Source: Bdellovibrionota bacterium (lineage in GTDB: Bacteria > Bdellovibrionota_C > UBA2361 > JAAYZI01). Taken from it: a stretch of DNA of 64,000 bases. Below, piece after piece: positions 4,231 through 35,594 of the stretch (its first letter is position 1; the number at the start of each line of letters is the position of its first letter). The notes under the pieces are model-generated. The model did not search any database, was not told where the DNA came from, and was given only the letters and a program-made list of their open reading frames with translations. Location of the stretch: contig JBMNIF010000002.1 in assembly GCA_050950765.1 (NCBI GenBank), positions 1,152,001-1,216,000 on the forward strand, read 5' to 3'. The position numbers and the translations under genes are program-made.

Positions 4231-5073
4231 TTATTGATCAAAGTTCTCTTTTGTATAAATTACACTTAAGACACACAAGATAAACGGCACGATCCAGATA
4301 GTTGGTATACAAATGGTAGCCCAGAAATAGGTTATTTGTACTATTTCTAAAGTTGATCCTGAAGATGGCATAAAGTAGGAGGGCATTATTAAGAGAAGAG
4401 AAGCTAAAAGCCCTAATAAAATTGCCGTTACTATTAAGGTAATATAACTTAGGGCATGTTTTAAAATTACTTTAAGGCAGATTAAGCTTCTGTTTACTAT
4501 ATTTTTAAAGTCTTTGATGTCATTCATGAAGATATTGATGAATGTGTACACTATGATAATTCCCAAAAGACACACAATCGACACTAGGACGAAAGCTTTG
4601 ACTGAAGAAAGTGAGTAGGGAATTGATTTATATATTAGTAGGTAATATGGGATGCACACCACGAAAAACATCGGAGAATGGGTGATATATTTTTCAAGCT
4701 CTTCAAAAAAATCATCATAGTTTGTCGTACCTTTCTTTATGACTTCAATATTTTTAATTAAGATAAAAGCTAAGGTTAGTGCGGCAAAAATTGGAAGTAA
4801 GATAAAATATATAGAATAGAATGTCATAAATAGTTTATTCTCTTCAACGTCTGTTTTTAAAAGAGAATTAAGAGCATCAACTGTTAAAAAGGCTGCTATG
4901 GTTAAGACTAGGTATACCGTTATCCCTATAAAACAGATCCTCCAGATGCCGAGTTTGACACCTTTGGTTTGGGTTACTTTCCAAGCTTCAGACAAGACAT
5001 CTCTTACACGCCAACCTTCGTTACTGTTGGTTTCAACAGGAAGTTCTTGATTGTTTTGATCTGGCATTGACAT
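4231..5073 (-). CDS. Hypothetical multi-pass membrane protein
   Basis: 280-aa ORF with about 6 hydrophobic segments; very AT-rich. Confidence 0.7.
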   Translation of the reverse strand: MSMPDQNNQELPVETNSNEGWRVRDVLSEAWKVTQTKGVKLGIWRICFIGITVYLVLTIAAFLTVDALNSLLKTDVEENKLFMTFYSIYFILLPIFAALTLAFILIKNIEVIKKGTTNYDDFFEELEKYITHSPMFFVVCIPYYLLIYKSIPYSLSSVKAFVLVSIVCLLGIIIVYTFINIFMNDIKDFKNIVNRSLICLKVILKHALSYITLIVTAILLGLLASLLLIMPSYFMPSSGSTLEIVQITYFWATICIPTIWIVPFILCVLSVIYTKENFDQ

Positions 5074-5458
5074 AATTACTATCTTTAATTTTAAGTTTTT
5101 ATACCCTCAGTATATCGATATAAGGTCTTATATGGAGATAATAATCTAAGCGATTATGAAAAAGGCTGAAAGTAGTTGTTTTTTGATTAAAAGCGGAGAT
5201 ATTACTGTGCAAAAGATCTTTTCAATTATCTGATTTTACCCATAGAGGTTCGTTCGGAAAAAAATGAGAATGCTACAAAAATTATTATTAAAAAATAGGG
5301 TATATTTAAAATGAGCGTAAATTTAAGCTTGCAAAAAGATAGATTCTCTAAGAAGAAGGAGATTGATAAAGATAAGCTTAATAATAAAAGTAAAAAGGAG
5401 AAGATAAGAGCTTTAGATAAGTAGTATTTACTAACCTCAATTCCATTCGGTGTTTTTT

Positions 5459-5498
5459 AAAAAATATGAGCCTTAAAGTTTTCACCTCAAGGCTCATA
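5459..5498 (-). terminator. Probable intrinsic terminator of cassette 1
   Basis: Minus strand reads TATGAGCCTTGAGG-TGAAAA-CTTTAAGGCTCATA followed by a T run. Confidence 0.65.
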
Positions 5499-5588
5499 AC
5501 GTTCTAGAAGGGCGACGCGCAACACCTACCATAGTTGTCGGAGATCTTGCCGTCGCTTGTTTCCTTCTATTAGCCGCGTGCGTAGATA

Positions 5589-5927
5589 CTAAGCCTGTTC
5601 CGCTGATCCTACGGAGGCGTGGAAAAGACCTTTGTATAAACTACGCTTACTCAAATGCTGGACCACTTTGTTCGCAAACGACAACAGCAAAGGATAATCT
5701 GCGTTTGGCACCATAAATACTATGGTGTCGTATCCCTTCATGGTGTCATGCCCTTCCTCCCAGAATGTAGTCTGGTACGACGGATTCGTTTTTCTCCAAC
5801 AGACATCGATAGCGATTTTTAAGAGAAACAATTTGAAACGAGATTCATCACTAGGGCACACGAATGCGATAGGTTGGCAAGAATTATCCCCGTTATATGC
5901 GAGGGGATCTTCTTTTGCTTGGCACAC
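5589..5927 (-). CDS. Hypothetical protein (cassette 1, 112 aa)
   Basis: GTG at 5927 is preceded by an AAGGAG SD. The longer ORF call (6041) starts inside the conserved hairpin. Confidence 0.55.
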   Translation of the reverse strand: MCQAKEDPLAYNGDNSCQPIAFVCPSDESRFKLFLLKIAIDVCWRKTNPSYQTTFWEEGHDTMKGYDTIVFMVPNADYPLLLSFANKVVQHLSKRSLYKGLFHASVGSAEQA

Positions 5928-5964
5928 TTTATTCTCCTTTAGTGCGGGTGATTGACTCATTCTG

Positions 5965-6180
5965 GATATCGAACATTCGAATATCACCCGATGAGTCGTC
6001 TCTATCAAGTTGTGAAAAAGAACTAAACAGAAACGACTCATCGGAGAAGGAGTCCCTTTTGGAAAAAAAGGAGGATGCCGAGAAAAGCCCTACCACTTTT
6101 AAACGTCAAATGGATATACTAAAAAAATCCTTTATAAAAACCGATCTTCTACCCATTACCAAGCTCTTATCTTATAAGAT
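5965..6180 (-). promoter_or_regulatory. Conserved structured 5' leader, copy 1 (also at 7029-7240 and 8307-8510)
   Basis: ~24-bp hairpin CCGATGAGTCGT...ACGACTCATCGG whose G-U pairs fit the minus strand; anti-SD-like TCCTCCTT/CTCCTTCT tracts; GATATC-armed palindrome. Confidence 0.6.
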
Positions 6181-6581
6181 GCGATTTTATACGAGACTTT
6201 ATTTTTAGGCAAAAAAATAGTGAAGATCCGATCTTATAATTTAAAAAGCTTAAAATTTAAGGTCTTATATTTAAAACGAGCGTAAATTTAAGCTTGCAAA
6301 AAGATAGATTCTCTAAGAAGAAGTTCTAAGATAAAGAAAGCCCAAGCTTAATAATAAAAGTAAAAAGGAGAAGATAAGAGCAACGAATGGACACTAAAGA
6401 ACCGAAGCGAAAAACCTCTGTATAGCATCCATCCGTTGTTCTTAAGCATAAGGTCTAAAGTGCTCCCTTGAAAATTTCAAAGGGCTTCAGGGCTTACAAC
6501 GTTCTAGGAACGACGTGCGACGGTACCGAGAAGGCGTAGCAGGTCATGCCAACACTTAGCGGTTAGTAATTGCCGTTGTCT

Positions 6582-6989
6582 TCAGGTATTTGGTTCTTGA
6601 TACCAATCGTCTTCAAATATTGGTTCCGGATTGTAATGCCACTTAAACGTGAGATAGGAGGTAATAACTTCTAAAGAGGTCACTATCTTTTCCACAACCG
6701 AAGTGAATTTTTCGAGGAACTCTTCTTCAGTTGTGGCACCAAGATCGTAGACAGTTACCGTGATCACTATAAGGTCATTTCTCCTTGAGGGGTCGCTATT
6801 TATCGAGTGGTGACATTCCATTTTGAAAGTTTCCGAAAAGCCCGACGAAGAATATTCCCCCCAGTAATCGCAGATAGAATTTTTGAGTTGATCCATTCTG
6901 GATTCCCATTCGAGATTAGTTTCGTCGGGTGATCCGCGATTAATTTCGAGGTTGGCTTGGTATTTCAAGCCTCCAAGGCTTTCCTCCAT
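6582..6989 (-). CDS. Hypothetical acidic protein (cassette 2, 135 aa)
   Basis: ATG at 6989 (MEESLGG) with an AGGAG SD 9 nt upstream. Confidence 0.65.
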   Translation of the reverse strand: MEESLGGLKYQANLEINRGSPDETNLEWESRMDQLKNSICDYWGEYSSSGFSETFKMECHHSINSDPSRRNDLIVITVTVYDLGATTEEEFLEKFTSVVEKIVTSLEVITSYLTFKWHYNPEPIFEDDWYQEPNT

Positions 6990-7622
6990 GACGGTTTCTC
7001 CTATAATGAAAAAGTTAAACTCATTCTGGATATCGAACGTTCGAATATCACCCGATGAGTCGTCTCTATCAAGTTGAAAAAGAACTAAACAGAAACGACT
7101 CATCGGAGAAGGAGTCCCTTTTGGAAAAAAAGGAGGATGCCGAGAAAAGCCCTATCGTTTTTAAACGTCAAATGGATACACTAAAAAAAATCCTTTGTAA
7201 AAACCGATCTTCTACCCATTACCAAGCTCTTATCTTATGGTACGTGAGTCTATACGAGACTTTATTTTTGAGGCAACACGTTTAGGCAAAAAAATAGTGA
7301 AGATCCGATCTTAATAATTTAAAAAGCTTAAAATTTAGGGTCTTATATTTAAAACGAGCGTAAATTTAAGCTTGCAAAAAGATAGATTCTCTAAGAATTA
7401 GGAGATTGATAAAGATAAGCTTAATAATAAAAGTAAAAAGGAGAAGATAAGAGCAACGAATGGACACTAAAGAACCGAAGCGAAAAACCTCTGTATAGCA
7501 TCCATCCGTTGTTCTTAAGCATAAGCCCTAAAGTGCCCCTTGAAAATTTCAAGGGCTTCAGGGCTTACAACGTTCTAGGAACAACGTGCAACGTTGCCGA
7601 GAAGGCGTAGCAGCACGCTAGC

Positions 7623-8240
7623 TTATGCACAGTCTTCGTCTTCTGGAGCGGGAATATCGTAAGAAGATCCTTGAATCCCTACGCCCGTACCGTCATCAAA
7701 CGATATTGTTAAGGAGCCACCGCCGAGCTGTTTGGCGAGAGATTCCCCAAGGAAGTCGAGTTCTTCTAGGGATATGCCGTAACCTTTTGGGAGACGGAAT
7801 TCAACCGTTACATAGCGATAGTTTTCATCTGCGTAGACTTCAACGACAACCTGTTCGCACTTTGAGAATTTTTCGCTCAGTTCTCCTCCCACAAGGAAGG
7901 CGAGCTCTTCCGACGTTTTCTCATTGACGGAGGGACAATCTCTTAAGGTAATACAGTATTGATTGTACCCCACTCCCATTATGCAAAGATCGCGCGATTG
8001 CTTTGGAAACGAGTCCCCTTTAGAAGAGAAGAATTTCTTCTTGTCGGTGTAAATTCTTACCTCAATCTTGAGAGGGAAAGTTTCTCCGTTTACGTTAATC
8101 TCGAAAAGGAAATCGAAAACGGAAACTGTGGATTCGATAAGGTTCCCGCACCTATCAGGTTCACGTTCAATAACGGTCCTTTCCTTCCATCCTTTCAACG
8201 AGATTTGCTGATAGCAGCGTTTATCCAATTTATCAGGCAT
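7623..8240 (-). CDS. Hypothetical acidic protein (cassette 3, 205 aa)
   Basis: Long ORF with an AAGGAGG SD upstream of the ATG. Confidence 0.7.
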   Translation of the reverse strand: MPDKLDKRCYQQISLKGWKERTVIEREPDRCGNLIESTVSVFDFLFEINVNGETFPLKIEVRIYTDKKKFFSSKGDSFPKQSRDLCIMGVGYNQYCITLRDCPSVNEKTSEELAFLVGGELSEKFSKCEQVVVEVYADENYRYVTVEFRLPKGYGISLEELDFLGESLAKQLGGGSLTISFDDGTGVGIQGSSYDIPAPEDEDCA

Positions 8241-8946
8241 TATAGTTATAGCCTCCTTGTATCACAGTTGTGAACACCGACTCGCTTTCGGATACGTAAT
8301 GATTAAGATATCACGTGATATCACCCTCCGATGAGTCGTCTCTATCAAGTTGTGAAAAAGAACTAAACAGAAACGACTCATCGGAGAAGGAGTCCCTTTT
8401 GGAAAAAAAGGAGGACGAGCCCTATCGCTTTTAAACGTCAAATGGATACACTAAAAAAAATCCTTTATAAAAACCGATCTTCTACCCATTACCAAGCTCT
8501 TATCTTATAACTTATAAGTTTACACGATGGTTTATTTCTAAGCAAAAAAATCCACTCTTTTGACGTCTTTAAAAGCAAAAAATAATTAAAACCTTAGATA
8601 CTTTAGGACGGTAAGATGGTCATGAATAAACGTTTAAAATCACACCGTTGAAGAAGATAAGTTTATCACTTATTAAGGTAAGATGCCGATATAACAAGAG
8701 TTTGAGTGTAGATCTACGATATTCTTCCCCTCTGTTAAGGTATCTTAGCAAGAAGGTGCGGCGACGGCGTGGTCGTCTACGGAGAGAAGGAAAGATGAAA
8801 GTTCTTTTATTAGTAGTTTTATTGGGAGTGCAGTGCGATACGAAGGGATGCGCTTAATTTATCACTTACCACCACATTTTTTATAAAATACCCTTATTAT
8901 TTAATGTAGTAGGATCTTTCTTAGCAGGATTTTTTACCTCCTTTAG

Positions 8947-9045
8947 CACCTCTTCGATCTGGAAGGTGCAAAGTATGCAGTATTTACACTGATGGGAGCA
9001 GCCACGACCTTTAACACCTCTTCGATCTGGAAGGTGTAAAGTATC
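8947..9045. repeat. Two direct copies of a ~29-bp hairpin-forming sequence CACCTCTTCGATCTGGAAGGTGYAAAGTAT
   Basis: Copies at ~8947 and ~9015. Confidence 0.75.
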
Positions 9046-9254
9046 TAATGGATACAGAGTATATGAAATTATGCGCTACCGTTTTGTTGCAAAATATAAG
9101 TGGCATCGGTGCTCCTCTCTGCGGGATAAGTTGTGCACCCTTTCTGTTAAGGTGATCTACAATACAGATAAGATATCATCCTTTTAGTAGAAAACTTGAT
9201 TTTTTAGTAAAAAAACGTACCCTGATTTTATTCTTAGAAACGGTAAGGAGGGGT

Positions 9255-10403
9255 GTGGATAAAGGGAATAATACTGCTCTGCAAAGTGGACAAAAGATAA
9301 TAGGGGGAGAAGATGACGCTTTTCTATCAGAGCAGATTATTACATACATCGGAAATAAGCGGGCGTTACTCGTCTTTATCGGAGAAGCGCTTGACGTTGT
9401 AAGGAAAGAGTTAAAAAAAGAGAAGATAGATCTCGTTGATGCTTTTTCCGGTTCGGGAGTGGTCTCAAGGTATTTTAAACAGTTTAGTGCAAACTTATTC
9501 AGTAACGATTTAGAAGCTTACTGTCAGACGATAAACCGCTGCTACTTAACAAATAAAGAAGATCTGGATTTCGAAGCTTTACATGCTCATTACGATGCGA
9601 TTACTGATAAACTTGAAAGACTGCCTCTAAAAAAAGGCTTTATTTCAGAGTTGTATGCACCGCAAAATGATGCGGCTATCAAAGAAAATGAGAGAGTTTT
9701 CTTTACCTGTCGTAATGCAAACTATATCGACACCTGTCGACAATATCTGGAAGATGTGCCGCAGCCGTATAAGGGTTTACTCCTTGCGCCTTTACTGTAT
9801 GAGGCATCTGTTCATAACAATACCTCTGGAGTTTTTAAAGGATTTTATAAAAACTCAAAAACGGGGATCGGTCAGTACGGAGGGAATGCACAAAACGCTT
9901 TAAGTAGAATAAAAAAAGAGATTAAGTTACCGCTACCGATCTTCAGTAACTTTAATTGTGCAGTGCATATACTTAAGGAAGATGCTGCCAAGCTTCCGCA
10001 TATTTTGCCCGCAACAGACCTCGTATATCTAGATCCGCCGTATAATCAACACCCTTACGGCTCAAACTATTTTATGCTTAATCTGATTAATTCTTATCAG
10101 AGACCGAAAAATATCAGTCGAGTTTCAGGCATTCCAAAAAAATGGAATAGATCAAGATATAATAAAAAAGCGGAATCCGCAGAAGCCTTAGCAACACTTT
10201 GTAACGAATTAAAAACAAAATATCTTCTGATATCATTTAATTCAGAAGGGTTTGTTAGCCTTGATGAGATGAAAAAAATCCTCAAAAAACAGGGCAAAGT
10301 AACTATCTTAGAAACTAAATACAACACCTTTAGAGGTTCTAGAAATCTTAGAGGGCGTAACCCGTATGTTAAAGAATATCTGTATCTCGTGAAAAAATAT
10401 TGA
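9255..10403 (+). CDS. N6-adenine DNA methyltransferase (D12 class), no adjacent endonuclease
   Basis: ITYIGNKR, DAFSGSGVVS (motif I), YLDPPYNQHPY (motif IV) and ISFNSEG. Confidence 0.88.
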   Translation: MDKGNNTALQSGQKIIGGEDDAFLSEQIITYIGNKRALLVFIGEALDVVRKELKKEKIDLVDAFSGSGVVSRYFKQFSANLFSNDLEAYCQTINRCYLTNKEDLDFEALHAHYDAITDKLERLPLKKGFISELYAPQNDAAIKENERVFFTCRNANYIDTCRQYLEDVPQPYKGLLLAPLLYEASVHNNTSGVFKGFYKNSKTGIGQYGGNAQNALSRIKKEIKLPLPIFSNFNCAVHILKEDAAKLPHILPATDLVYLDPPYNQHPYGSNYFMLNLINSYQRPKNISRVSGIPKKWNRSRYNKKAESAEALATLCNELKTKYLLISFNSEGFVSLDEMKKILKKQGKVTILETKYNTFRGSRNLRGRNPYVKEYLYLVKKY

Positions 10404-10494
10404 GGTTGCTACCTTCCTAGCTTTCTAGCCGAGACTCTTTTTAAAAAGTAAGCGATTAGCCTTCCATCTTTTTGACGTGCTTATAGTTTCAAAA

Positions 10495-10635
10495 TTCCTA
10501 GCTTAGGTGAGGGTGAGGTTTCTATTTAGGGAGGGACAAGGTTTCTAGCTTAGGTGAGGATAAAGTTTCTACTTAGGGGAGGATAAAGTTTCTAAGTTAG
10601 GTGAGGGAGGGTAAAACTTTTAGTTGAGGGGTGGG
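10495..10635. repeat. Degenerate ~25-bp tandem repeat (TTTCTAGCTTAGGTGAGG-like)
   Basis: About 5-6 imperfect copies. Confidence 0.65.
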
Positions 10636-10744: not shown

Positions 10745-12313
10745 TTAATTGCTGCGCAGATAAACCGATACCGTTGTGCCCTCCTCTTCTTTACTCTCAA
10801 TAGTGATCCCACCTTTTAAGTTTTGAACGATGGCAAAAACAGAAGATAGCCCAAGCCCTTCGCCGTTTAAGCCGAGTCCAGATCTCTTGTCTAAGTTCTT
10901 AGTCGTAAAGAAAGGAGCAAAACAGTGCGCTTTCTTTTCGGAGGAGATGCCGACACCTGTGTCTCTGATTTTAAGTAGCGCATACCTTCCAGCAGGAAGA
11001 TCTTCAACCTGAAGGTCAGTAAGGGTAATCTCATCAGTAATAACGGTGATATTACCGTGAGAAGTTGCTTCTTCCGCATTTTTTAATAGTGCACTAATGA
11101 TAGAAACAAGCTCTTCATGCGAAGCGATGACGGGCGGTGGTGCACCGAAAGAGATAATCAACTTCGGTGCTGCTGAAGGTGGTGTAATTAAATTTTGTTG
11201 ATTTTGCACGGCTGCTAATAAAGCAGTGTTTAGGTCAGCTGTTATAACGTTTGAGGTCTCCGCTTGATACATCTTTGAAAGTTGTTTTGCAATGCGCGCA
11301 CCGTTCTTAATACTTTCCTGAATAGCTTGTGCTGCTTCTCGTACTAACGTAGCGTTGTCAGAAGCCGCTTCAATAACGGCAGCTTGCCCTAGCACCGCTT
11401 GCAAGCTGTTGTTAATGTTGTGAGAAACTCCCGCTGCTAGTAGACGAATCTCATTAAGGCGTTGCAGATTTTGTAGCCGCTTTTCAACTTCTATGGCTTT
11501 GCTGATATCGAAAACGGTAACAATAACGGTAGCACCTATTGAGGCGGTGTCACGTAGTGCAGAGATCGTGACTAAGTAATTACTTTCATCTATAACGACT
11601 CTAGTTTGCGAGGTTTCAACTTCGTTGCTTAAAACTCGGTTTATTGCGGTTGAAAAGTGATCTTTTTGCACCTTGTCATTAAAACACTCCAGAAAGGAGT
11701 GCCCGACCTGAAAAAGAACACGCTTAAAATCAGGGTCGCCAAAATTAAAATCACTTAACGCCTCAGGTATTGCAAGGGTTTTGATAATAGCGGAGGCATC
11801 CAGCATAACAACTTCTAACGGAAGGGCAGTAAGGATCTTTTGGGTGGCACGTCTCTCTACTTCAATACTACTCTCTGCCAGAACGGCGGGTGGAGTAGGA
11901 TAGACCTTCTTTGGAGGTGCTTTTTCTAACTCCGAAATATCTAAGATAAACCCCTCTAAGAGATCTTCATCAGAGGAGAATCCAGCACGACAATATAGGA
12001 GGTGTGTTTTGTGATCTTGTGGTGAAATCCAGCGGTAAGAAGTTGTGTAGGGGGTGTGGTGCGCGATAGCGCCGTTAAAACTTCCTAAGACACGCATTAA
12101 ATCTTGATGATGGACATGACGGAAAAGAATATTACCGCCCGTCATGATATCGGCATCAGTTACACCTAAAACTCTCTCGGCGTTATCACTCCACGAGATA
12201 ACGCGTTGACTCTCTAAGGAATAAGAGAACAAAAAAAGGTGCGTTGTGTTGATTAACAGCCTTGCTAAAGGCGTATGTACTGCATTTTGGTTCGTCATAA
12301 CCGAACAATCCAT
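10745..12313 (-). CDS. PAS-domain sensor histidine kinase
   Basis: N-terminal PAS-like region (SWSDNAERVLG, HVHHQD); H-box SHNINNSL; N-box LKNAEEA; G1 DTGVGI; F-box PFFTTK; G2 GLGLS. Confidence 0.9.
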   Translation of the reverse strand: MDCSVMTNQNAVHTPLARLLINTTHLFLFSYSLESQRVISWSDNAERVLGVTDADIMTGGNILFRHVHHQDLMRVLGSFNGAIAHHTPYTTSYRWISPQDHKTHLLYCRAGFSSDEDLLEGFILDISELEKAPPKKVYPTPPAVLAESSIEVERRATQKILTALPLEVVMLDASAIIKTLAIPEALSDFNFGDPDFKRVLFQVGHSFLECFNDKVQKDHFSTAINRVLSNEVETSQTRVVIDESNYLVTISALRDTASIGATVIVTVFDISKAIEVEKRLQNLQRLNEIRLLAAGVSHNINNSLQAVLGQAAVIEAASDNATLVREAAQAIQESIKNGARIAKQLSKMYQAETSNVITADLNTALLAAVQNQQNLITPPSAAPKLIISFGAPPPVIASHEELVSIISALLKNAEEATSHGNITVITDEITLTDLQVEDLPAGRYALLKIRDTGVGISSEKKAHCFAPFFTTKNLDKRSGLGLNGEGLGLSSVFAIVQNLKGGITIESKEEEGTTVSVYLRSN

Positions 12314-30087: not shown

Positions 30088-31664
30088 CCCTAACTCTTCA
30101 TATTTCAGGAATATATTTCAATAAAAAATTAAATATCCTTTAAAAAAGGTATTGTGCTTTAAAAATATTGGTGTATTATATATTACGTATTGCGTAATAC
30201 GTTAGGAGATATATATCATGACATATCCAGATTGGGTTTTGAAAGAAAAAAAGAAAGGCACTGAGGTAGTTCACAGGAACGGCAAATATTATTTGTATAA
30301 AATAAGTTCTGTGTGGAATAAGGAAAAGGGACGTGCTCAGAAGGTTACCTTAGAATACCTTGGCAGGATAACTGAAGATAAGGGTCTTATTCCCCCTAAA
30401 CGTAGGGGTTCTTACAAAGATGGAGAAGTTTCTGCAAAGGAGTATGGAGCTAGCAAAACACTTTGTGAGTTAGGAAAAGACATATTAAATCGCTTAGAAG
30501 ATAGGTTTCCGAATGATTATCAAAAGATTTTTTCTATTGCTGCTTTAAGAGTAATTGAGCGTTGTCCGTTTAAGGGGATTGATTTTTTGTATGAGAAATC
30601 TTTTTTATCTGAACGCTTCGGAAAGCTTGCTCTATCTTCCTCTAGCATATCAAGGTTTTTAAGGGAGCTAGGTAGCCAGAGACCAAAGTTAGTTGGTTTT
30701 ATGAAAGAGTATGTTTGCGATGTTGATTATCTTTTTTTTGATTTAACAAATATAATAAGTAAATCGGAAAATGTTGAAATAAATAGAGTTGGCTATAACA
30801 GTCATCATGATTTTGATCCTCAAATTGGCTTAATGTATGCTTTTTCAGCGGATGACAGTTCTCCCACTTATTACAGAGTTATTCCTGGAAATATAAGAGA
30901 TGTGAGGGCATTTAAGGGGAGTATAGAAGAGGCTGGTATAAAGGATGCTGTAATAGTTGCAGATAAAGGGTTTGGCTCACAAGAGAATTTTAAGTTATTA
31001 AAAGAAGCTAATTTAAAATATATTGTTCCATTAAGGCGCAATAATTCAAACATAAACAGAGAGATTTTAAGATGTGGAGACAAGTCTAAGTTTGAAAATT
31101 TTTTCTTTCATAATGCTCGTCCTATATGGCCTTACTCATATAAAATAAACGAAGATCGTCTTATTGTTTGTCTTGATGAATCGCTTAAGGCTAGAGAAGA
31201 GACTGATTATCTGCGTAGAGTTCAAGAAAATATAGAAGGCTACACAAAAGAAGGTTTTATCGATAAACAATACCAATTCGGAACGATTACTTTTCAAACG
31301 AACCTCGATTTGCCATGCGACAAGGTATTTTGTTTATATAAGGCAAGAAATGAAATAGAGATGACATTCGATTTTTTAAAAAACCTATTAGAGCAAGATC
31401 GTGTATACTTGCAAGATAAATATGCGATTGAAGCTTGGGCGTTCATAAACCATATTTCACTTATGCTTGTTTATTTGATATATCATAAACTTAAAGAAAG
31501 TGAACTTATTTCTAAATATTCCATTCAAGAATTTATTACACATCTTAAATATATAAGTTATTTAAAAATCGGAGACTCGTGGGTAGTAAGTGAGATTTCA
31601 GGTAAAACACAAAAAATTTTAGAAAAATTAAAAATTCATATTACGCAAACGTGAAGAGTTAGGG
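30088..31664 (+). mobile_element. IS1634-family insertion sequence, copy 1 (1577 bp)
   Basis: 13-bp TIR CCCTAACTCTTCA/TGAAGAGTTAGGG; 6-bp TSD TTTAAA (30082-30087 and 31665-31670). Confidence 0.88.
30218..31654 (+). CDS. DDE transposase (IS1634-like)
   Basis: FDLT, GYNSHHDFDPQ, PGNIRDV, VADKGF and YKARNEIEMTF motifs. Confidence 0.88.
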   Translation: MTYPDWVLKEKKKGTEVVHRNGKYYLYKISSVWNKEKGRAQKVTLEYLGRITEDKGLIPPKRRGSYKDGEVSAKEYGASKTLCELGKDILNRLEDRFPNDYQKIFSIAALRVIERCPFKGIDFLYEKSFLSERFGKLALSSSSISRFLRELGSQRPKLVGFMKEYVCDVDYLFFDLTNIISKSENVEINRVGYNSHHDFDPQIGLMYAFSADDSSPTYYRVIPGNIRDVRAFKGSIEEAGIKDAVIVADKGFGSQENFKLLKEANLKYIVPLRRNNSNINREILRCGDKSKFENFFFHNARPIWPYSYKINEDRLIVCLDESLKAREETDYLRRVQENIEGYTKEGFIDKQYQFGTITFQTNLDLPCDKVFCLYKARNEIEMTFDFLKNLLEQDRVYLQDKYAIEAWAFINHISLMLVYLIYHKLKESELISKYSIQEFITHLKYISYLKIGDSWVVSEISGKTQKILEKLKIHITQT

Positions 31665-34625: not shown

Positions 34626-35594
34626 ATGAGAAATCGTCGAGATAGGAGAAATCCTAATAAAATGGTGGTACATGTCACCAATAGAACATTATCTGGCTTG
34701 CCATTTCTAGCACGCCTTTTTATGAAATGGATCCTGTTAGGGATTATGGCACGTTGCCAAGAGCACCATCGTGTTAGAATTGCTCATTTTAATTGGATGA
34801 GTAACCACTTTCACATGATATTAGTTGGTGAAGGGAAACACATCTCTTCATTTATGGGAGAGATGGAAAGTGCAGTTGCACGCGCTATTAAGAAACTAAC
34901 GCCGCAATATAGGAGAAACGTTTGGGATGGACGTTTTAAGGAGCAACGTTTGTTAACTCATAATGATGTTATCGATAAGATAGTCTATATTTATATAAAT
35001 CCTGTAAAAGCAGGCCTTGTTGCACATGCTGATGATTGGGAAGGGTGTAGTAGTTTTAGAATGTATAAATCAGGCTCTTTAACAGTGCAGGGTAAGTATA
35101 CCTCTTCTACTAATTTACGTAAGTTACCGCAGAGACTTCATAAAATAAGCGATGCTATTTTATTAAAAATGCTTAATATGTTTCCGCACACTTGTCATGA
35201 GCTTAAGATTACCCCTGATGCTTGGAAGAATTGTTTTGAAGAATCAAAAAACCTTACGTCTGAAGAGATCTTTAAAACAATAATGACAGAGATTTCAAAA
35301 AGGGAAGAAGAGATTGCACTTGAAAGGAAGGGGCATTTTATGGGGATGCGTAAAGTGCAGCAGCAATCGATAAATATTGCGTATGTACCTAAGAAGAAGA
35401 CGCGTACGCCGTATTTAATTTGTTGGATTAAGGAGTTACGGATAAAGGCGATAGCAGAATATAAGGCTTTTTGTGAAGAGTGTAGAAAGGCTTGGAAGAA
35501 GTGGAAGCAAGGTGATATTTCAGCTAAGTTTGTTTATGGGGCATTTCGTCCGAGTATGCCTATTGTAGGTAGGCTTTGCGGGGTGGCGACCTGA
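34626..35594 (+). CDS. REP-associated tyrosine transposase (RAYT/TnpA-REP, Y1 HUH superfamily)
   Basis: HVTNRT, WMSNHFHMIL (HUH), VWDGRF, YIYINPVKAGLV (catalytic Tyr region) and DDWEGCSS; flanked by repeat cores on both sides. Confidence 0.9.
   Translation: MRNRRDRRNPNKMVVHVTNRTLSGLPFLARLFMKWILLGIMARCQEHHRVRIAHFNWMSNHFHMILVGEGKHISSFMGEMESAVARAIKKLTPQYRRNVWDGRFKEQRLLTHNDVIDKIVYIYINPVKAGLVAHADDWEGCSSFRMYKSGSLTVQGKYTSSTNLRKLPQRLHKISDAILLKMLNMFPHTCHELKITPDAWKNCFEESKNLTSEEIFKTIMTEISKREEEIALERKGHFMGMRKVQQQSINIAYVPKKKTRTPYLICWIKELRIKAIAEYKAFCEECRKAWKKWKQGDISAKFVYGAFRPSMPIVGRLCGVAT

Follow-up and report, generated by a model that had tools for sequence, protein, structure and literature searches.

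The window analysed here comprises 64,000 nucleotides (nt) of a Bdellovibrionota bacterium (source genome G000, 2.64 Mb in 5 contigs, 40% G+C; positions G000:C2:1152001-1216000) and contains a tandem array of three one-gene units, u1 to u3, all on the minus strand. A constant non-coding frame is common to the three units and encloses open reading frames (ORFs) of 112, 135 and 205 amino acids (aa), hereafter called cargo, which differ from unit to unit. The array is spaced at 1062-1078 and 1270-1278 nt (direct-repeat families D1-D9 and D12), and the frame amounts to ~600 nt per junction, with an identity within the array of 88-92% between leaders and of 90-97% between tails (BLASTN); the cargo has a G+C content of 0.41-0.51, the AT-rich blocks one of 0.26-0.31. 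An earlier note, written from the letters alone, had described three such minus-strand units, and they lie where it placed them, with the features that it listed. Its central observation, a constant frame around unlike cargo, is confirmed and reaches beyond the array, as the frame surrounds seven different ORFs, one of which comes from a widespread enzyme family. The pattern in u1 to u3 is not a chance repeat, because a covariance model of the leader matches exactly five full-length sense copies in the 2.64 Mb of G000, and no more (151-238 bits).

Read along the minus strand, each unit consists of a promoter, the invariant AAGAUAAGAGC, a leader, a linker with a Shine-Dalgarno (SD) sequence, the ORF, a GC-rich stretch, hairpins, an inverted repeat, and an AT-rich block. 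Every unit has its own promoter of the sigma-70 type (consensus TTGCYT-16/18 nt-TAAAAT, TAAACT or TAGACT), with AAGAUAAGAGC ~10 nt downstream of it. The leader, a 5' untranslated region (5'UTR) of 247-267 nt, starts with a strongly conserved part (GGGUAGAAGAU plus an AAGGA loop, P1), followed by a CUCCUU-rich segment, by P2, a 24-bp hairpin with conserved upper stem and loop, and by P3, a short palindromic hairpin that occurs as type A (u1, u2, u4), as type B (u3 and the unit of genome G008, here called g8), and in a third form in u5. Between P3 and the SD (AGGAG in the array) lies a linker of variable length (20-60 nt). On the 3' side of the ORF, the GC-rich stretch ends in CTAGAACGTT and is followed by a nested hairpin, which in u1 has a T run and is thereby a true intrinsic terminator, and by a second hairpin; next come GCUCUUAUCUU, the inverted repeat of the 5' end, and a T-rich run, and a 100-nt AT-rich block closes the unit, abutting the next promoter. 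Terminator or hairpin, AT block and promoter stand both between u3 and u2 and between u2 and u1. The features of the array, in window coordinates and in the order of transcription, and the two further units of G000 are:

8517-8545, minus: u3 promoter, TTGCTT-17 nt-TAAACT; hexamers aligned in all six long-form leaders, not flagged by a strict consensus scan
8241-8507, minus: u3 5'UTR leader, from alignment and covariation (covariance model 224.7 bits); 5' inverted repeat AAGATAAGAGC at 8496-8506, GGGTAGAAGAT/P1 region, P2 at 8328-8384, type-B P3 palindrome GATATCACGTGATATC at 8307-8322, SD AGGAG at 8253-8257
7623-8240, minus: u3 cargo, 205 aa, no known family, distant relative of the G008 cargo
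7344-7622, minus: u3 tail; GC-rich segment, CTAGAACGTT at 7569-7578, nested hairpins, 3' inverted repeat GCTCTTATCTT at 7444-7454 with T-rich run, AT-rich block at 7344-7443
7247-7289, minus: u2 promoter; a 14-nt insertion has doubled TTGCCT, with TATAGA/TAGACT 16-18 nt downstream of the second copy
6990-7237, minus: u2 5'UTR leader (covariance model 238.3 bits); 5' inverted repeat at 7226-7236, P2 at 7052-7106, type-A P3 at 7029-7049, SD at 6998-7002
6582-6989, minus: u2 cargo, 135 aa, predicted generic ferredoxin-like beta-alpha-beta-beta-alpha-beta sandwich
6266-6581, minus: u2 tail; CTAGAACGTT at 6498-6507, hairpins, 3' inverted repeat at 6371-6381, AT-rich block
6184-6212, minus: u1 promoter, TTGCCT-17 nt-TAAAAT, reported by the consensus scan too
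5928-6174, minus: u1 5'UTR leader (covariance model 237.3 bits); 5' inverted repeat at 6163-6173, P2 at 5988-6044, type-A P3 at 5965-5985, SD at 5934-5938
5589-5927, minus: u1 cargo, 112 aa, GTG start, no known family
5301-5588, minus: u1 tail; CTAGAACGTT at 5498-5507, intrinsic terminator from a terminator scan (hairpin 5465-5498 plus T run), 3' inverted repeat at 5401-5411, AT-rich block at 5301-5400
G000:C2:1226813-1227721: u4, 302-aa cargo
G000:C3:375635-376024: u5, 129-aa cargo

Other candidate features of the leaders were dropped: u4 and u5 lack a 16-codon upstream reading frame that starts in AAUGGGUAG, plus-strand ORFs of 76 and 103 aa within the leaders do not stay in frame from unit to unit, and an internal promoter in P2/P3 (TTGATA-17-GATATT) is preserved neither in type-B leaders nor in G008.

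Comparing the leader by BLASTN with the rest of the genome and with relatives, a check proposed in the earlier note, yielded further units around other cargo. When 91 genomes of the order and 124 from the phylum were searched, the leader covariance model (R1) matched G000, G008 and, weakly, G037; G008 holds one full unit with a 188-aa cargo. G037 and G026 have a short form of the frame, and a model of P2 only (R2) adds G026, which brings the count to 4 of 124 phylum genomes. G008, G037 and G026 represent another family than G000 within the same order, and the eighth instance of the frame, that of G026, holds an orthologue of the G037 ORF. A strict hairpin-loop pattern is found at 7 sites in 3 of the 124 genomes, compared with 0 sites for the reversed pattern as a control. 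Shorter resemblances were set aside as chance or low complexity, namely matches of 27 nt in G019 and G008:C17 and of 45-49 nt in G008:C3 (E 5e-4 to 7e-6). A leader 20-mer occurs at 5 loci on genome contigs and at 2 on metagenome contigs, and of these seven only the G008 record shows extended similarity by BLASTN.

The leader was examined for covariation over six sequences, 43 pairs and 256 cells, with 500 shuffles and slid partners as controls. Of these cells 98.4% are paired, and six pairs have changed on both sides, as compared with 1.9 in the shuffles (1 of 500 reaches 6) and 0-1 with slid partners. P2 has 143 of its 144 cells paired, with four compensatory pairs and many G.U pairs; as these would be A.C on the other strand, the leader presumably works as sense-strand RNA. 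The hairpin of P3 is kept in all its forms, including that of u5 (CTGAAGTTCAG), which has G.U pairs on the sense strand, and a sequence that varies while its pairing persists argues for an RNA hairpin rather than a recombination core. Conserved pairing with compensatory changes on the coding strand suggests a structured cis-regulatory RNA leader, apparently of no described family: Rfam 15 gives no match at the gathering score in the window, and at E<=1 over 5100-9300 only a chance match to mir-308 (20.5 bits against a gathering score of 60). In the syntenic copies of G037 and G026, the leader core is identical at 96 of 100 positions, while the upstream acyl-ligase coding sequence (CDS) agrees at 37-45 of 50 per window (74-90%) and the cargo CDS at 28-41 of 50 (56-82%), which points to a stronger constraint on the leader than on the adjoining proteins.

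These pairings bear directly on one proposal of the earlier note, which had suggested a cassette-exchange platform distinct from integrons and had singled out AACGTT as its core. Integrons are the textbook route by which bacteria collect and express unrelated small genes; their cassettes (IntI, attI, attC) form tandem same-strand arrays of short, mostly unknown ORFs with conserved structured repeats, they are promoterless, and the attC core reads GTTRRRY. An integron-like site-specific platform, in which a recombinase cuts at AACGTT cores and ORFs are exchanged as circles, would fit the tandem, same-strand arrangement of short unknown ORFs and conserved structured repeats seen here. It would also fit the motifs that flank each cargo of the array and that of G008, AACGTTC or CTAGAACGTT on the 3' side and a related palindrome on the 5' side, and the positions of these motifs in the array had been given correctly (AACGTTC at 5498, 6498 and 7569; AACATTC at 5972, AACGTTC at 7036 and CACGTG at 8312). 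Moreover, the top structural neighbour of the u3 protein is an integron cassette protein, at a weak score (VIA, Z 5.8). However, the 5' palindrome varies between AACGTT, AACATT, CACGTG and the form in u5 with its pairing kept as in an RNA hairpin, and conserved sequence passes both supposed cores to within ~10-40 nt of the ORFs, so that AACGTT is not supported as a recombination core and the 5' palindrome is better read as P3. A promoter is present in every unit, the repeats greatly exceed attC sites in length, and the hairpins would act as sense-strand RNA; AACGTTC and GTTCTAG do not fit the attC core consensus, and no Rfam family was matched. The earlier note had seen no integrase at the locus, and indeed no tyrosine recombinase lies <60 kb from any copy; the nearest of three PF00589 genes in G000 is ~94 kb away from the array and ~63 kb from u5. 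A platform of this kind is therefore highly improbable. The other half of that proposal, the exchange itself, finds partial support in the mosaic frames and the differences between strains described below.

The cargo is as heterogeneous as the frame is constant. In the six long-form units (u1-u5 and g8), the ORFs have no Pfam, NCBIfam or PADLOC match, and PHROGs gives weak matches only, for u2 and u5 (E 0.005-0.05). The G037/G026 cargo is similar to none of these six and belongs to Nuc_deoxyri_tr2 (41.1 bits against a cut-off of 30); its 139 homologues at E<=0.001 include some that are named from Chloroflexi and Anaerolineae. For u4, one relative was found, 54% identical and on a 1-kb contig; in the ESM Atlas, the best values for u4 (0.76) and u1 (0.83) are below the useful range. 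A word-indexed homologue search with u3 returned only u3 itself, and a phmmer search of 1.84 billion representatives contributed a single further match, a 2303-aa repeat protein (E 1.3e-14, seven stretches of ~30% identity), which has an LDFLGE-like motif in common with residues 97-186 of u3 (best stretch 30% over 91 aa, 35.8 bits). Kinship with this protein was rejected, as each stretch is weak alone and the score was judged to be summed weak similarity. The AlphaFold models are middling (u3, pLDDT 61.9 and pTM 0.67; u2, 65.8 and 0.52): that of u3 combines a beta sheet with an alpha/beta domain and has no Foldseek match at E<=0.001, and the fold matches of u2 are generic ferredoxin-like ones only. 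The cargo is probably of an accessory or conflict type.

A single fast-evolving gene family under a homogenised regulatory frame had been offered in the earlier note as the alternative to cassette exchange; its flanks would be kept by selection and homogenised by gene conversion, and its cargo would have diverged past recognition, for example in an arms race. Smith-Waterman scores of the six long-form ORFs were compared with 300 shuffles in all 15 pairs, and among the array proteins they gave no better than shuffled scores for u1-u2 (z -0.1) and u1-u3 (z -0.3), in agreement with the lack of mutual similarity first noticed; u2-u3 (z 2.35) and u2-u4 (z 2.7) are slightly above, with 9 of 300 shuffles reaching the score in each case. 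The only pair above all 300 shuffles is u3 with g8 (z 6.6, ~25% identity over 162 aa, 0/300), and these two units also have the type-B leader and the same tail type, so that for this pair, with frames 80-84% identical, the family alternative stands. In addition, alpha/beta sandwiches are predicted both for u2 and for the C-terminal half of u3, and the G037/G026 cargo diverges faster than the neighbouring gene. The alternative holds for no other pair: 12 of 15 lie no more than ~1.6 standard deviations above shuffles, the cargo ranges from 112 to 302 aa, and one cargo is the widespread Nuc_deoxyri_tr2, unlike the other six. The ferredoxin-like arrangement is too common to indicate kinship (best TM-score ~0.5, Z <6), and no shared fold or profile, which the earlier note had named as a refutation of its proposal, emerged from the comparisons, in which folds were predicted for u2 and u3 only. 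Furthermore, identity at the edges of the ORFs falls in a step rather than a gradient. A common descent of all cargo is therefore unlikely.

This step was seen between u3 and the G008 unit, whose frames are 80-84% identical overall: most frame windows agree at 29-38 of 40 positions and those in the ORF at 0-24 of 40, with a stepwise fall ~30 nt before the start codon and a recovery ~20 nt after the stop. Within the array, u2 combines the type-A leader of u1 with the tail of u3 (60/60 in hairpin 2), and the AT block of u1 is nearest to that of u3 (68/73). According to these alignments, frames and cargo have separate histories, and the frames of the array are mosaic. Strain variation points in the same direction. 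A 4.2-kb stretch recurs in 20 listed sequencing runs, six of them RNA; these come from 15 studies of bioreactor, digester and biogas metagenomes. Four runs (X7, X10, X13 and X15) were aligned to the window, in all cases as contigs and not as raw reads. In one DNA contig of X10, the u1 leader contains a u3-type patch at 6076-6120 that differs by three substitutions, the loss of 8 nt and an additional A, and that can be read as a gene-conversion tract. In the RNA run X15, a second allele of u3 has three changes within 29 nt (7700, 7705 and 7728), corresponding to F181L, I179T and one synonymous change.

The loci of the units are accessory sites and mutually non-syntenic, except for G037 with G026, which keep the same leader, cargo and neighbour, so that this copy was inherited vertically. 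The G008 unit sits in an island between SPFH genes and a large surface-protein gene, and the congener G045 is without the whole island. Beside the G008 cassette, the gene of a GNAT acetyltransferase has 90-95% DNA identity to its counterpart in G000, compared with only 56% for the L20 protein, which shows that DNA passes between the two lineages. A synteny of u4 with G037, both placed after an AMP-binding gene, was rejected, given that the orthologues of the G037 neighbour on C3 are 57-63% identical and the u4 neighbour 30%. The sister genus (G001) is too distant for an empty-site search, in which only chorismate synthase matched, at 67%.

It has to be considered whether the frame might be nothing but a shared regulatory RNA, that is, the signal of a regulon that stems from old duplications, with no exchange of cassettes. 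The strong conservation of the RNA structure, more constrained than the flanking CDSs, and the vertical inheritance in G037 and G026 would both be expected in this case. It would leave unexplained why leader and tail types are differently combined in u1, u2 and u3, why one strain has a conversion patch, and why frames are 80-84% identical across families whose L20 proteins are 56% identical, in non-syntenic accessory islands. We regard old duplication alone as distinctly unlikely.

RNA libraries contain the cargo ORFs. RNA contigs cover 5451-5980 (X13) and 5580-5975 (X15) of u1, 6489-7037 (X13) and 6625-7043 (X15) of u2, and 7670-8217 (X15) of u3, whereas the RNA contigs from both studies have no coverage of 4900-5322 or 8284-9100; this restriction to the cargo argues for transcription and against DNA carry-over. 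Leader and ORF are presumably co-transcribed. One RNA contig stops at 5451 straight against adapter letters, just past the u1 terminator.

This apparent end of the u1 mRNA before the 3' repeat speaks against one reading of the inverted repeats, namely that AAGATAAGAGC ... GCTCTTATCTT are the termini of a non-autonomous transposon that contains a passenger gene and is mobilised in trans by a transposase from another locus. An 11-bp inverted repeat brackets the transcribed part of u1 to u3 (6163-6173/5401-5411, 7226-7236/6371-6381 and 8496-8506/7444-7454), is altered on both arms in u4 (C-G to T-A), and is extended to 15 bp in u5; moreover, copies are found at unrelated loci in G000 and in other genomes, and G000 encodes DDE and Y1 transposases. 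However, homology runs over the promoter, ~60-70 nt upstream of the 5' repeat, and over the AT block, ~100 nt past the 3' repeat, also in the single copies u4 and g8, so that it overruns both repeats by 60-100 nt, which sets the units apart from miniature inverted-repeat transposable elements. No target-site duplication was seen beside the repeats, and the 10-mer AAGATAAGAG has 18 sites, of which 8 are in cassettes, against ~9 expected, i.e., it occurs elsewhere at about chance frequency. Both mismatches in u5 are G.U on the sense strand and fit RNA as well as DNA. Altogether, transposition of this kind seems quite improbable. Transposase genes of the window lie >20 kb from the cassettes: a 322-aa ORF with a weak IS200-like Y1 transposase domain (34626-35594, 29.8 bits) and a 478-aa DDE transposase (30218-31654).

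With moderate confidence, we interpret the units as autonomous one-gene expression cassettes, whose constant frame would provide both a shared regulatory RNA and the homology for shuffling without a recombinase. Each unit would be self-contained, with the frame enclosing an interchangeable accessory ORF. At the RNA level, the frame could place unrelated genes under one common post-transcriptional control: P2, as a long perfect hairpin, might be the site of an RNase III-type double-strand RNase or a site for binding of double-stranded RNA, and the invariant 5' segment might serve as docking site for a trans-acting factor. At the DNA level, the repeated frames would be homology arms, through which homologous recombination and gene conversion could duplicate, delete, patch and swap units, within as well as between genomes, with no need for a dedicated recombinase.

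Several points weigh against this interpretation. Homologous recombination does not account for the first entry of a new ORF into the frame. With eight instances in four genomes, the family is tiny, and scans for exact 20-mers in 185,579 species genomes and in JGI metagenomes found no further copy. Masking of the SD by the upstream CUCCUU is strongly predicted for u2 and g8 only and weak in u1, u3 and u5, and u4 uses a local hairpin; SD sequestration by CUCCUU was therefore discarded as a common mechanism. The RNA contigs end at 5975-5981 and 7037-7043; P1, P2, the upstream leader and any transcript start lie outside their coverage; as DNA contigs break nearby too, the stop near P3 may be a repeat assembly break and does not indicate processing. 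DNA contigs of X7 join 6260 to 7339 and 7074 to 8353, each exactly one unit shorter than the window, and this run also has contigs over u2 and u3; the joints run through exact repeats of ~59-63 nt and could be real losses of a unit or assembly chimeras. An RNA contig of X13 (446 nt) has 389 other letters in place of 373 between the 3' and 5' flanks of u1, yet these flanks measure only 22 nt (3') and 35 nt (5'), and the contig may represent a diverged allele rather than another gene.

The cassette interpretation can be extended from a mere promoter-terminator spacer to a portable RNA switch, in which a new class of structured leader (GGGUAGAAGAU plus the 24-bp hairpin, with a dedicated factor) would silence a changing set of accessory or conflict genes until a common signal arrives, the ~600 nt common to all modules allowing a cassette system without recombinase. 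Such a switch is conceivable, if doubtful.

Phage morons, autonomous promoter-ORF-terminator units added to prophages, resemble the cassettes in being one-gene units with their own promoter and terminator and with a cargo G+C unlike that of the surrounding non-coding DNA; they differ in that morons are not known to have a common constant leader and tail, and no prophage context is found here. The upstream-homology-box (erp/ospE-F) genes of Borrelia cp32 prophages, which were reportedly treated by Marconi et al. in 1996, encode paralogous lipoproteins and have a conserved promoter and operator. As in the cassettes, very similar upstream regulatory DNA precedes strongly diverged ORFs and copies recombine, but the cargo considered here comes in part from unrelated families, and what is conserved is a long structured RNA together with a 3' tail.

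The closest described system appears to be the promoter-early stem-loops (PeSLs), mobile regulatory cassettes of T4-type phages (Arbiol et al., 2010, PMC2839356; Comeau et al., 2014, PMC4122927). A PeSL combines a stem-loop terminator and an AT-rich stretch with a sigma-70 promoter and an SD, placed between ORFans in variable regions; its copies recombine to give insertions, deletions and replacements without a dedicated recombinase, and exchange between adjacent copies yields mini-circles, as far as these two papers describe it (PMC2839356, PMC4122927). The junctions of the array have the same composite of terminator or hairpin, AT block, sigma-70 promoter and SD between ORFans. In contrast to the PeSLs in these accounts, they lie in bacterial chromosomes and not in hyperplastic regions of T4-type phage genomes, their frame is much larger (~600 nt per junction), and they include a covarying 5'UTR of 247-267 nt, which is no part of the PeSLs as described there. 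In agreement with the chromosomal setting, a BLASTN search with a 603-nt junction against phage (50,697 records) and plasmid collections gave no match, and none of 9 loci with the hairpin-loop pattern on viral contigs was backed by the covariance model (best E 0.29). The locus can be seen as a chromosomal counterpart of the short promoter-terminator motifs that T4-type phages combine with plain homologous recombination, in a phylum of predatory bacteria, with a long covarying RNA leader and a tail as its constant part. A limited literature search found no prior description of the frame; one may nevertheless exist. Should the leader prove to be a genuine control element, orphan genes would here be governed by a new RNA family, which would also offer a handle on the roles of these genes. 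If the frames drive exchange, they would illustrate how accessory genes can be shuffled and shared between bacterial families in bioreactor communities without a dedicated recombinase.

The chromosomal context of the copies includes genes for chorismate synthase, glycosyltransferases and L20 as well as SPFH genes; the neighbouring genes are housekeeping or cell-envelope genes and a D12 methyltransferase gene, with no phage or conjugation genes among the neighbours of the cassettes. The methyltransferase, a D12-class N6-adenine DNA enzyme, is encoded at 9255-10403 of the window (PADLOC MTase_II, 400 bits), with no obvious restriction gene adjoining it. Three tandem 47-nt repeats (10490-10607) separate its gene from that of a PAS histidine kinase (10745-12313).

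Other repeats occur next to the units. At 8940-9044 of the window, a 37-nt repeat that can form a hairpin (CACCTCTTCGATCTGGAAGGTG core) is present twice, at a distance of 68 nt, and its 22-mer is found nowhere else in G000. Contigs of X7 and X10 leave the window sequence at 8977 and 9007, and a 26-kb contig of X10 has only 8977-9007 in common with it, which implies that this short piece stands in other DNA too. Upstream of u4 (G000:C2:1228100-1228600; L005:1834-2334) is an array of ~100-nt repeats with GGTGCCACCC...hairpins, and an 18-mer from this array has 275 occurrences in the genome at <=2 mismatches. Finally, the GNAT gene of G000 (C3:203110-205774; the G008 copy is L018:6479-7312) is split by a 551-aa ORF resembling a neighbouring 519-aa ORF, in the manner of an insertion sequence, and the sequences point to a recent transfer of this gene between the families, followed by the insertion.

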